Sequence record: PP925832.1
From: Escherichia phage Fostie
DNA: 38,253 bases
Strand: one strand, 5' to 3'
A model generated the notes under the pieces. The model worked only from the letters and a program-made list of their open reading frames with translations. It ran no database searches and was not told where the DNA came from. Positions 29,236 to 30,951 of the stretch are shown here, piece after piece (the first letter of the stretch is position 1; each line of letters begins with the position of its first letter). The translations under genes and the position numbers were made by a program.

Positions 29236-29529
29236 ATGAACATAACCCCCCAACCAAAACCAGCAAGCCAGGGATTTGATATTCACGCCAAGCTTAGATC
29301 AGCCAATTCCCATTGGTCTTATTGTTATGTGGTGCAGCCTTGCGAGAAAGGATTTAATTACCAATTTAATACAACGTTTGTTGGTGAGATGGAGTTCGCC
29401 GTTTACGAACGCATCGATAACTATTTCGTATTGGTTGATTTTTTTAAGTCATACGATGAAGCATGTGCTGATGCTAAAAAAATCATTGATGACCATCCTG
29501 ATATTAAAAAGATGTTCTCTGCCATTTAA
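29236..29529 (+). CDS. Hypothetical protein, first gene of early-left operon (N position, not N-like)
   Basis: 97 aa from ATG at 29236 with SD GGAG; no arginine-rich motif; AT-rich; track ORF starts at TTG 29194. Confidence 0.45.
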   Translation: MNITPQPKPASQGFDIHAKLRSANSHWSYCYVVQPCEKGFNYQFNTTFVGEMEFAVYERIDNYFVLVDFFKSYDEACADAKKIIDDHPDIKKMFSAI

Positions 29530-29595
29530 CTGACTAATAAAACATTTAATCATAAATAACACCTTTTTGGGTGGGAACAAACTCACCCTGAGGAA

Positions 29596-29988
29596 ATGAA
29601 AATGCAAAACGCTATCGCAATTAATCAGCCATTAAAAACGCCTCAAATGCTGTTCGGCTCTGACAACATTAATGACTTTGGAAACCGAGTTCAGAGCTGC
29701 CGGATGGAAGGTGATTCAATGCAACCGACCATCGAACCATGTGAGGTTGTGGCGTTCGTTGATTGCGGTGGCCGTGCGCTCACTCCTGGCATTTATGTTT
29801 ATACGATGGATGTTTTCAGTCGCCCATGTCTGTTCATTAAGAGAATAGAGCCATTAGTTTGTGGTTCGTTGAAAATTATTTCTGACAACCATCATTACGA
29901 AACATTCACCCTCAACACCGATGAACTGAAAGATATCAAAATTCACGGTCGGGTAGTCGCTTCTTTGGCAGTGAGGCGCTTCGTATGA
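29596..29988 (+). CDS. Standalone S24 (LexA/UmuD-type) peptidase domain protein
   Basis: GDSM serine motif and FIKRI lysine motif present; no DNA-binding domain and no Ala-Gly/Cys-Gly cleavage site in the short N-terminus. Confidence 0.6.
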   Translation: MKMQNAIAINQPLKTPQMLFGSDNINDFGNRVQSCRMEGDSMQPTIEPCEVVAFVDCGGRALTPGIYVYTMDVFSRPCLFIKRIEPLVCGSLKIISDNHHYETFTLNTDELKDIKIHGRVVASLAVRRFV

Positions 29989-30022
29989 CTTTCATCAAGG
30001 ATAAAACGGCACACAGAACAGC

Positions 30023-30448
30023 ATGCCTTTATGCGGCTTGTGGTTACGAGGTAATCGCTCGCCTTTACCTCAAGAAAGCTTATGGGTACTAACTATGAAT
30101 ATTATCGATACCTACCGACGCCGAATTGCTACTGCGGCATTGGCGCGACTCCAGCGTAAGACTGGAGGAAATTTACTGATTATAAAACTGCCCGATAACA
30201 AAATTGAAACCGTAGAAGTAAATAAGAATTTCATGCTTCAGTTGTTATTACGGTTTGAAGGGTTAACTCGCGCCGGACTTAGCAGATATGAGGGTGATAC
30301 AACCATCAAGACCGCATATCAAAATACCATAGGGATTAATAAACACACCGAATACCTGACTGATTCAGGGAAATTAATTATCGACGAACTTCTTAACGAG
30401 GTTGTTGATTACGTGAAAAAGAAACACGCAAGTGGAGGAATTAATTGA
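30023..30448 (+). CDS. Hypothetical early protein
   Basis: ORF in pL operon; start uncertain (ATG 30023 or 30095, neither with strong SD). Confidence 0.35.
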   Translation: MPLCGLWLRGNRSPLPQESLWVLTMNIIDTYRRRIATAALARLQRKTGGNLLIIKLPDNKIETVEVNKNFMLQLLLRFEGLTRAGLSRYEGDTTIKTAYQNTIGINKHTEYLTDSGKLIIDELLNEVVDYVKKKHASGGIN

Positions 30449-30951
30449 TGGCAGTAAATAACGAAAACATCAAGCTGCTTGTCGCCAGGCTGAAGGATAT
30501 CCATGAAAGGACTGGTATGAATTTCCCTGCATGGATGATGGATGAAAATCGCAGTGGAGACCATGAGTTGACTGCTGACGAACAGCACGAGTGGGCTGAA
30601 ATCATTTGTGAGTCCATGCGCGGAACTGTCGCTCTCCTCTACCTGATTGAATGCGAAAAACGCTGGGGGCTTCGTGAAGGTGAATATGTGTTCAAAAGTG
30701 AAGAGGAAGTTTTAGGTCTTACAAGGGTGCTGATTGAGAACGTTTTGATCAAGTACGTGGAAGAAGACCTTCTCCGGCACAAGCCAACGGAGCGCTATAT
30801 GGCCGTGTTCCAGTTCTACTGGGCAAATGACCAGCGCGTTCAAGCAGGTGAAGCGTCATGGTTCAACGAATTCCTGGATGGGATTTTTTTAGATGTCGCG
30901 CGCCGGTTACGAGCCGGTGAAAAGCCGCCAGTAAAACCGATTTTGCATTAA
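30448..30951 (+). CDS. Hypothetical early protein
   Basis: 167 aa, SD GGAGG before ATG at 30448, overlaps upstream stop. Confidence 0.45.
   Translation: MAVNNENIKLLVARLKDIHERTGMNFPAWMMDENRSGDHELTADEQHEWAEIICESMRGTVALLYLIECEKRWGLREGEYVFKSEEEVLGLTRVLIENVLIKYVEEDLLRHKPTERYMAVFQFYWANDQRVQAGEASWFNEFLDGIFLDVARRLRAGEKPPVKPILH

Follow-up and report, generated by a model that had tools for sequence, protein, structure and literature searches.

A stand-alone S24 peptidase-domain gene and its 35-codon partner in the early-left operon of Escherichia phage Fostie

S24 proteins are the textbook self-cleaving sensors of DNA damage. In the genome of Escherichia phage Fostie (sequence record PP925832.1; the whole stretch of 38,253 nucleotides is referred to below as the window) an S24 peptidase domain is encoded twice, once in the cI repressor and once in a separate small gene, hereafter the S24 gene (29602–29988, + strand), whose product is 128 aa long. 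In the family to which this product belongs neither the DNA-binding domain nor the self-cleavage site is left, yet selection still maintains the active site. Within many prophages of Enterobacter, Citrobacter, Salmonella, E. coli and Cronobacter the gene lies less than 1 kb into the early-left operon. The question that the locus raises is what such a protein may do. An earlier note on this DNA had considered a RecA-responsive or protease-based switch, or an anti-defence function, plausible. The analysis described here places S24 in a known clan, as a variant not described before, and in a conserved, widely mis-annotated cassette, which also contains a micro-gene, s35, and the gene that we call g3.

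The S24 gene, its product and its leader

The open reading frame (ORF) containing the S24 gene opens at 29596, which is not the real start. The start was assigned to the second ATG, at 29602, because a Shine-Dalgarno (SD) sequence, GAGG (29590–29593), is located 8 nt upstream of it, several relatives do not have the first ATG, and the homologues are 128–129 aa long. The protein matched Pfam Peptidase_S24 (PF00717) with 28.6 bits (cut-off 23.3), the match covering profile positions 34–116 only. In PHROG the protein was assigned to family 6201, with an end-to-end match (2e-39) to phrog_6201, a profile of 121 aa labelled 'CI-like repressor'. The nucleophile is Ser39, in a GDSM motif, and the general base is Lys80, in FIKR (FIKRI). 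Both were invariant in a family alignment of 26 sequences, the Ser and the Lys were found in 69/69 alleles, and they were also present in members of ~45–48% identity. The longest invariant block of the family was G37-S39-M40-P42-T43-I44; no other part of the protein is as well conserved as the active-site signature.

No helix-turn-helix (HTH) match was obtained with the protein, which starts ~38 residues before the Ser. In residues 1–38 there is no Ala-Gly or Cys-Gly, and no pair of a small residue and Gly is conserved there among the 26 aligned sequences. Two Cys-Gly dipeptides (in DCGG and VCGS) do occur, both downstream of the Ser and inside the core. The earlier note was thus correct in describing an S24 domain with GDSM and FIKRI motifs and no DNA-binding domain; its statement that there is no Cys-Gly is, taken literally, wrong. 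Its claim that a self-cleavage site is missing stands for the segment that precedes the Ser and has to be qualified by the two dipeptides downstream. An AlphaFold2 (AF2) model of S24 had a mean predicted local distance difference test (pLDDT) value of 69.5, with 80–89 in the core and poor values for residues 1–39. A Foldseek search with the model returned the C-terminal domain (CTD) of LexA with an E-value of 1.4e-3 (template modelling, TM, score ~0.52–0.53) and viral CI repressors with an E-value of 1.7e-5.

Relatives of S24 formed 145 protein clusters at E ≤ 0.001, and among the 120 matches listed the length was mostly 128–129 aa. They belong to prophages of Enterobacteriaceae (Enterobacter, Citrobacter, Kluyvera, Salmonella, E. 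coli, Lelliottia, Kosakonia and others); 310 relatives were found in IMG/VR. An exhaustive profile search of 1.8 billion representatives revealed a small clade with a sharp edge: about six or seven clusters at 50% identity were found down to E = 1e-29, followed by a gap to 1e-14, where full-length repressors of 200–260 aa begin, mixed with other short S24 proteins. For comparison of loci a set of 89 stand-alone S24 loci was used (numbered with the prefix L), to which two divergent loci, L091 and L092, were added. In 69 distinct full-length alleles variable sites were distributed over the three codon positions as 68/53/120, and synonymous codon differences exceeded nonsynonymous ones about 2:1 (51234:24505). 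The gene was intact in 87 of the 89 loci. The two broken copies contain a frameshift, in the isolated phage CharmingMan (L004, 5404–5798), and a nonsense codon, in a viral contig (L062, 3501–3884).

The possibility that S24 is a truncated cI remnant, which the earlier note had left standing, was rejected on the basis of family size, constant length and coding selection. An SD sequence of its own, a conserved leader, the intact copies and the excess of synonymous differences all point to a genuine stand-alone protein, and S24 represents a real, selected gene family and not a repressor remnant. The literature on stand-alone S24 proteins in early-left operons, on the biology of the related Cronobacter phage ENT39118 and on anti-repressors of the CTD type yielded no study of this family. 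Mis-annotation is widespread among its members: they are entered as 'CI-like repressor' or as 'helix-turn-helix transcriptional regulator', labels that can mislead calls of prophage immunity.

The 5′ leader of the S24 gene contains a conserved hairpin (29562–29593, + strand; inner 7-bp stem at 29569–29588), which follows the pattern ACACCTTT-(N)-GGTGGGG-loop-AACTCACCC-TGAGGAAATGAAAATG. The minimum free energy of the predicted fold was −15.8 kcal/mol (z = −3.28), and one of 200 shuffled sequences folded as well. In this fold an outer CCUU:GAGG pairing would mask the SD sequence. The stem arms and ACACCTTT were kept in 46 of 47 distinct leaders, with a variable loop, and the hairpin was kept even where the upstream gene differs; it is absent in ENT39118. 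Its predicted ability to occlude the ribosome-binding site suggests that translation of S24 is regulated. The same hairpin was considered as a boxB/nut site and rejected: the loop is variable and no second copy was found in the window.

The conserved cassette and its replaceable first gene

Downstream of S24 the earlier note had listed two further unassigned genes. Both g3 and g4 do follow, yet the list was incomplete. The apparent gap after S24 (29989–30094, 106 nt) is highly conserved and holds s35 (29985–30092, + strand, 35 codons), which encodes MTFIKDKTAHRTACLYAACGYEVIARLYLKKAYGY and whose ATG overlaps the S24 stop codon (ATGA). The reading frame was kept in 7/7 loci compared, and tblastn detected s35 in all 89 stand-alone S24 loci. 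The ATGA overlap was present in 87 of them; the other two have a GTG and an ATA start, the latter in L078 (at about 3881). Variable sites by codon position numbered 14/14/31, and synonymous and nonsynonymous differences 6376 and 3262. In the divergent L091 and L092 (~45–48% identity) s35 has 32–34 codons, the same overlap and the same C-terminal LRKAYGR. The C-terminal (L/I)(K/R)KAYG motif is the most conserved part of the peptide. A second feature is an invariant Gly in the context ...YAA(C/S/A/F)G(Y/H)...; it is preceded by Ala-Ala-Cys in most alleles, the residue directly before it being C, S, A, F or Y. The peptide matched nothing in Pfam or PHROG. We conclude that s35 is a predicted gene for a basic 35-aa peptide that should be translationally coupled to S24. 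As the obligate partner of S24 it is the most interesting new element of the cassette. It is missing from most public annotations; in LMessi, CharmingMan and L007 it is called a 35-aa hypothetical protein.

The next gene, g3 (30095–30448, + strand, 117 aa), belongs to phrog_1737 (2.8e-44; 421 clusters), members of which are named DUF5375 in one source and 'Fels-1 prophage protein' in another. It was found in 89/89 S24 loci and in the two divergent ones. Its last codon overlaps with the ATG of g4 (30448–30951, + strand, 167 aa; phrog_37204 at 1.3e-79), which was present in only 23 of the 89 loci. The conserved core is therefore best described, as far as the compared sequences go, as a three-gene cassette, S24, s35 and g3, preceded by a replaceable first gene.

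That first gene is, in the window, g1 (29236–29529, + strand). The earlier note described its product as a 97-aa protein other than the antiterminator N, and this was borne out: it contains two Arg in 97 aa and no arginine-rich motif, and no significant match was found in Pfam, PHROG, NCBIfam or PADLOC. Homologues of g1 formed 104 clusters, mostly of 97–101 aa. The N-terminal 13 residues are variable and are followed by a conserved domain, with 20 invariant columns in the alignment. The AF2 model of g1 (pLDDT 59) was uninformative, Foldseek returning no fold match (E ≥ 0.25), and sequence searches of the Protein Data Bank (PDB) with g1, S24 and g3 profiles gave no significant match. The gene was present in 51 of the 89 loci and missing from the other 38. 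In ~34 of these 38 the S24 gene is preceded by a gene for a 143-aa HTH_19/Phage_CI_repr protein, and in a few others by one for a 72-aa protein that resembles the C-terminal half of the 143-aa HTH protein; the two have an SWS.D...C...L...LD.L motif in common. Where the HTH gene is present (L002, L013, L033–L036 and ~30 other loci) it adjoins the S24 gene in the manner of two halves of a repressor. A g1 that is 98% identical can go with an S24 that is only 58% identical, and g1 and S24 recombine independently of each other. An obligate pair of g1 and S24 was rejected, since g1 is missing from 38/89 loci and the alleles are uncoupled. The unit assumed by the earlier note, g1 and S24 with two further genes, thus gives way in the comparison of loci to the cassette described above, in which g1 has no fixed place.

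The earlier note also held that the operon has no N-like antiterminator. No match to the N family or to Rfam was found in the region, boxA-like matches occurred at chance level (25 found, 27.6 expected), the twin hairpins on the PR side (described below) have no counterpart at PL, no nutL/nutR pair was found, and the PL leader before g1 is only ~25 nt long. With neither family matches nor nut sites, the lack of an N-type system is supported within the reach of these searches. The caveat is the conserved basic N-terminus of g3, TYRRRIxxAALxRxxRKTG (residues 6–24), which makes the claim hold with a reservation. This part of g3 (30095–30160) superficially resembles the arginine-rich motif of N-type antiterminators, and no matching nut sites were found. 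N proteins are disordered and poorly conserved; the rest of g3 has many well-conserved columns in the family alignment.

Origin and possible function of the S24 protein

Outside the S24 clade the nearest sequences found by tblastn were CTDs of full-length phage repressors (~35% identity), and the related repressor CTDs share a ...KRL...G.L.IISDN..Y signature. With the CTD of the cI of LMessi, a phage that has the same cassette, S24 was 32% identical over ~100 residues (E 2e-10, hhalign probability 97.3%). LMessi cI (232 aa) represents the '...KRL...ISDN..Y' lineage of phage cI repressors, whose CTDs have the same fold and the same Ser-Lys motifs as S24; the landmarks FGNR, GDSM, KR and SDN..Y are common to both proteins. 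Unlike LMessi cI, S24 has no HTH, no linker and no Ala-Gly site, and is encoded by a separate gene of the PL operon that is always followed by s35. When the two are aligned (FGNR...GDSM), residue 1 of S24 falls just after the position of the SAG site, so S24 would correspond to the C-terminal fragment that a repressor leaves after cleavage, encoded as such. Comparison of the S24 profile with E. coli UmuD and LexA (sequences entered by hand) gave hhalign probabilities of 0.3–0.4%, and the UmuD models NCBIfam PRK10276 and PHROG 811 ('UmuD-like') did not match S24, yet both match the cI of the window. BLASTP detected no similarity between S24 and the CTD of the window cI (E = 12), and a recent duplication of that domain was therefore rejected as the source of S24. 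The comparisons indicate that S24 derives from one lineage of phage-repressor CTDs, and not from UmuD or LexA.

Alleles of S24 do not co-vary with immunity type. In L001, L003 and L005 the cI proteins are 100% identical and the S24 alleles only 58% identical; conversely, L005 and L007 have cI proteins that are 22% identical and S24 proteins that are 100% identical. A switch specific to the phage's own cI, one form that the proposal of the earlier note could take, is disfavoured by these combinations.

Our preferred reading, put forward tentatively, is that S24 is a protease acting in trans, or a substrate binder, and that its target, engaged together with s35, does not depend on immunity type. 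In a lysogen cI bound at OL would repress the cassette, which would be transcribed from PL upon infection or induction. S24 is unable to bind DNA and offers no site of its own for cleavage in the way of LexA, but its Ser-Lys active site is intact. It may thus work in trans, binding and probably cleaving another polypeptide in the empty substrate groove. The s35 peptide would be made 1:1 with S24, as a partner, cofactor, inhibitor or substrate, and the leader hairpin may regulate S24 translation. A target common to phages of different immunity would be a host protein or a conserved phage protein, and not the phage's own cI. Gene structures, family membership, conservation, linkage and the lack of co-variation with cI are shown by the data; that S24 is catalytic, that it acts in trans and what s35 does are inferred. 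Cleavage of UmuD can be intermolecular. Isolated C-terminal fragments of LexA and lambda cI reportedly cleave other repressor molecules in trans (a finding attributed to Kim and Little, 1993), so the chemistry proposed for S24 has a precedent.

Among the closest known systems, two bear on this reading. The C-terminal fragment of LexA acting as an enzyme in trans is, like S24, a catalytic core without the DNA-binding domain, and LexA CTD structures (1jhe, 7b5g) are the best PDB fold matches of S24 (TM ~0.53). Unlike S24, whose truncated form is the gene product itself and whose sequence similarity to LexA is undetectable by hhalign, the fragment is a laboratory or post-cleavage product of a self-cleaving protein. 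SodX (TIGR02754), the maturation protease of nickel superoxide dismutase (SOD), is likewise a protein of ~100–130 aa with a Ser-Lys dyad, and its substrate is supplied in trans. The match of S24 to the SodX model in NCBIfam was weak (19 bits, E 0.0015, far below the 63-bit cut-off), and the context of S24 differs, no SOD gene being present. If S24 is indeed a protease acting in trans, it would be a natural counterpart of the repressor C-terminal fragments that act as enzymes in the laboratory, and its target would reveal a new early interaction between phage and host or between phages.

Several observations weigh against a trans-acting protease. The pLDDT of the AF2 model is below 50 at residues 1–9, 19–25 and 30–39, near the active site, and a model this weak there does not establish an open substrate groove. 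Sequence diversity in the family is low (at least ~45% identity), which makes the invariance of two residues only moderate evidence for catalysis; moreover, the GDSM region is structurally important in non-catalytic contexts as well. The natural knock-outs, among them the ATA start of s35 in L078, show that the function, and with it the cassette, is dispensable for plaque formation. Finally, none of the proteins discussed here has a characterised homologue.

The alternative that survives best, though we consider it unlikely, is that S24 is a dominant-negative decoy, or anti-repressor, which heterodimerises with the CTD of a full-length S24-type repressor and poisons DNA binding without proteolysis. 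A co-resident prophage cI or host LexA would be the partner, and the logic would be that of SinI against SinR, where also a short paralogue of a repressor's multimerisation domain is expressed separately. S24 is a paralogue of repressor CTDs, 32% identical to that of LMessi cI; it would appear only once PL is derepressed, when a feed-forward commitment to lysis would be timely; and an ORF6N anti-repressor-like gene in the same operon shows that anti-repression recurs here. However, S24 is not detectably similar to the CTD of the window cI, and its alleles do not follow cI type, which a specific interface would require. The whole GDSMxPT/FxKR signature is strictly kept, though a decoy does not need it. 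The SinI/SinR pair itself has an unrelated fold, and S24 differs from it both in keeping catalytic residues and in lacking co-variation with the neighbouring repressor.

A place for s35 in the chemistry is offered by a two-piece switch of the LexA type, in which protease domain and cleavable segment are separate and co-translated. When the 35-aa peptide is cut early in infection, possibly in response to RecA* or another signal, a small effector would be set free or destroyed; in a weaker form S24 would cut a host S24-type regulator, LexA for example, without DNA damage. We regard this set of ideas as quite unlikely, and the strict form, with s35 supplying the missing cleavage segment in trans as the substrate of S24, perhaps with stimulation by RecA*, as improbable. 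The fate of s35 would be the same in both, release or destruction of a small effector peptide. The s35 gene is obligately linked and translationally coupled to S24; the invariant Gly of the peptide, which follows Ala-Ala-Cys in most alleles, recalls the Cys-Gly site of UmuD and the Ala-Gly sites of LexA and cI; and S24 itself has no such site. Against this, the residue before the Gly varies and includes bulky ones unlike the known P1 residues of S24 substrates, and it is the (L/I)(K/R)KAYG tail, not the Gly region, that is most conserved. No SOS box was found near the genes, matches being at chance level. The same negative result bears on the RecA responsiveness suggested by the earlier note, which is left without support: in LexA and cI the cleavage-site region is where RecA* acts, and S24 lacks that region. 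Should the two-piece switch nevertheless be real, phages would have a new means of tying an S24 protease to a decision or to the takeover of the host.

Highly improbable, in our view, is a role as an accessory factor resembling UmuD′, like HumD of phage P1. In such a role S24 would bind host UmuC, DinB, the beta clamp or the RecA filament, and translesion synthesis, replication or recombination would be modulated while the phage grows. HumD, a UmuD′ homologue that is truncated by nature, is encoded already 'processed'. Both UmuD′ and HumD are small S24 proteins without a DNA-binding domain, and S24 has a fitting architecture: 128 aa, with a flexible N-terminal arm of ~30 residues that has no cleavage site, followed by the S24 core. 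Beyond clan level, however, they are unrelated to S24. Orthology with UmuD/HumD was rejected since the NCBIfam and hhalign comparisons failed (hhalign probability for UmuD 0.3%, with the sequence entered by hand), the NCBIfam UmuD model and PHROG 811 matching the window cI instead. The nearest relatives of S24 are phage repressors. The genomic context is also different: no umuC-like gene adjoins S24, and none of the neighbours g1, s35, g3 and g4 is polymerase-like.

It is extremely improbable that S24 is what is left of a duplicated repressor gene, decaying and functionless: the 'CI-like repressor' label in PHROG and several annotations, and the disruption of 2/89 copies, are outweighed by the length of 128–129 aa across genera, purifying selection, the conserved SD sequence and leader, and a position with s35 and g3 that is kept even at ~45% identity.

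An anti-defence role, also raised by the earlier note, found no support, as none of the PADLOC defence and anti-defence models matched g1, S24, g3 or g4.

The surrounding locus

The gene layout is the same as in Cronobacter phage ENT39118 (Hendrixvirinae according to its record). The region is the block of accessory genes next to PL in the early-left operon; the prophage is of the lambdoid, ENT39118-like kind found in Enterobacteriaceae. This agrees with the assignment, in the earlier note, of the genes to the accessory position of lambdoid phages. The immunity region consists of cro (28279–28073, − strand; Pfam Cro match, 1.7e-19) and cI (28373–29080, + strand), which encodes HTH_3 and Peptidase_S24 domains (94.5 bits for the latter) and has a lambda-like VSAG cleavage site. 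A GC hairpin with a T-run located 3′ of cI (29083–29110, + strand), AAAACCGGG-ATGC-CCCGGTTTTTTTT, was read from the sequence as the putative terminator of the immunity transcript. A repeat scan found it as an inverted repeat with 12-nt arms, 92% complementary; it was not among the calls of a simple terminator scan.

The OL-like operators and a PL-like promoter occupy 29140–29207 (strand not assigned). Within this segment the 34 nt at 29172–29205 were 71% complementary to the OR block at 28296–28329 in the repeat comparison, and TAGTACTA-type half-sites, TAGTACTA(C/T)A(A/G)GT, are common to both blocks. This complementarity and the common half-sites indicate that the OL-like operators are real, as the earlier note had proposed for the sequence upstream of the first gene. 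Reading of the sequence suggested PL-like hexamers, −35 TTGCAA at 29177–29182 and −10 TACTAT at 29199–29204, which were not among the calls of a promoter scan.

Genes 3′ of PL are all on the + strand and tightly spaced. After g4 follow the ORF6N-domain anti-repressor-like gene (30964–31824, + strand; Pfam ORF6N 1.1e-23, with matches to several anti-repressor PHROGs), a Lar-like gene (31824–32084, + strand), three ORFs without assignment, xis (33414–33641, + strand; DUF4224) and int (33641–34651, + strand). In the ORFs scanned up to xis/int no Red, RecET, Erf, Kil or CIII family was recognised. The statement of the earlier note that Red/RecET recombination genes are absent was thereby confirmed, and no neighbour of S24 matches Kil, CIII or any other characterised family, an outcome that the note had considered as a possible objection. 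The rightward operon encodes a Q-type antiterminator (PF03589), a Toprim primase and a DEAD-box helicase.

Further features of the window deserve mention. On the PR side, 3′ of cro and of a phrog_852 gene, two tandem hairpins (27740–27790, − strand) have identical 8-nt loops, UUAAAGGU, and stems CGGGU-loop-ACCCG and CAGGC-loop-GCCUG. Six related loci also have the pair, and changes in its stems are compensatory (ACAGGC/GCCTGT against ACAGGT/ACCTGT in ENT39118, for example). The PL operon contains nothing equivalent. The pair could be an RNA element of the PR side (terminator, processing site or put-like site) or a protein-binding DNA site. The adjoining ~400 nt before the helicase gene (27366–27740, − strand) are non-coding, contain an odd G-rich run, GGGGAAGAGGGAAAGGGGGGTAAGGGGGGATTGGGTGTAGGGGTAGG, and may be an origin or another regulatory region. 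Between the Lar-like gene and xis, a 255-aa ORF (32408–33175, + strand) overlaps the preceding 144-aa ORF and matches phrog_6158 at residues 32–112 and phrog_36275 at residues 148–255; it may be a fusion, have a wrong start or represent two genes. Lastly, the cI proteins of L001, L003 and L005 (230 aa) have ...EFACGDGSAL... where the window cI has VSAG, and this type of cI may use a Cys-Gly site, as UmuD and phi80 cI do.

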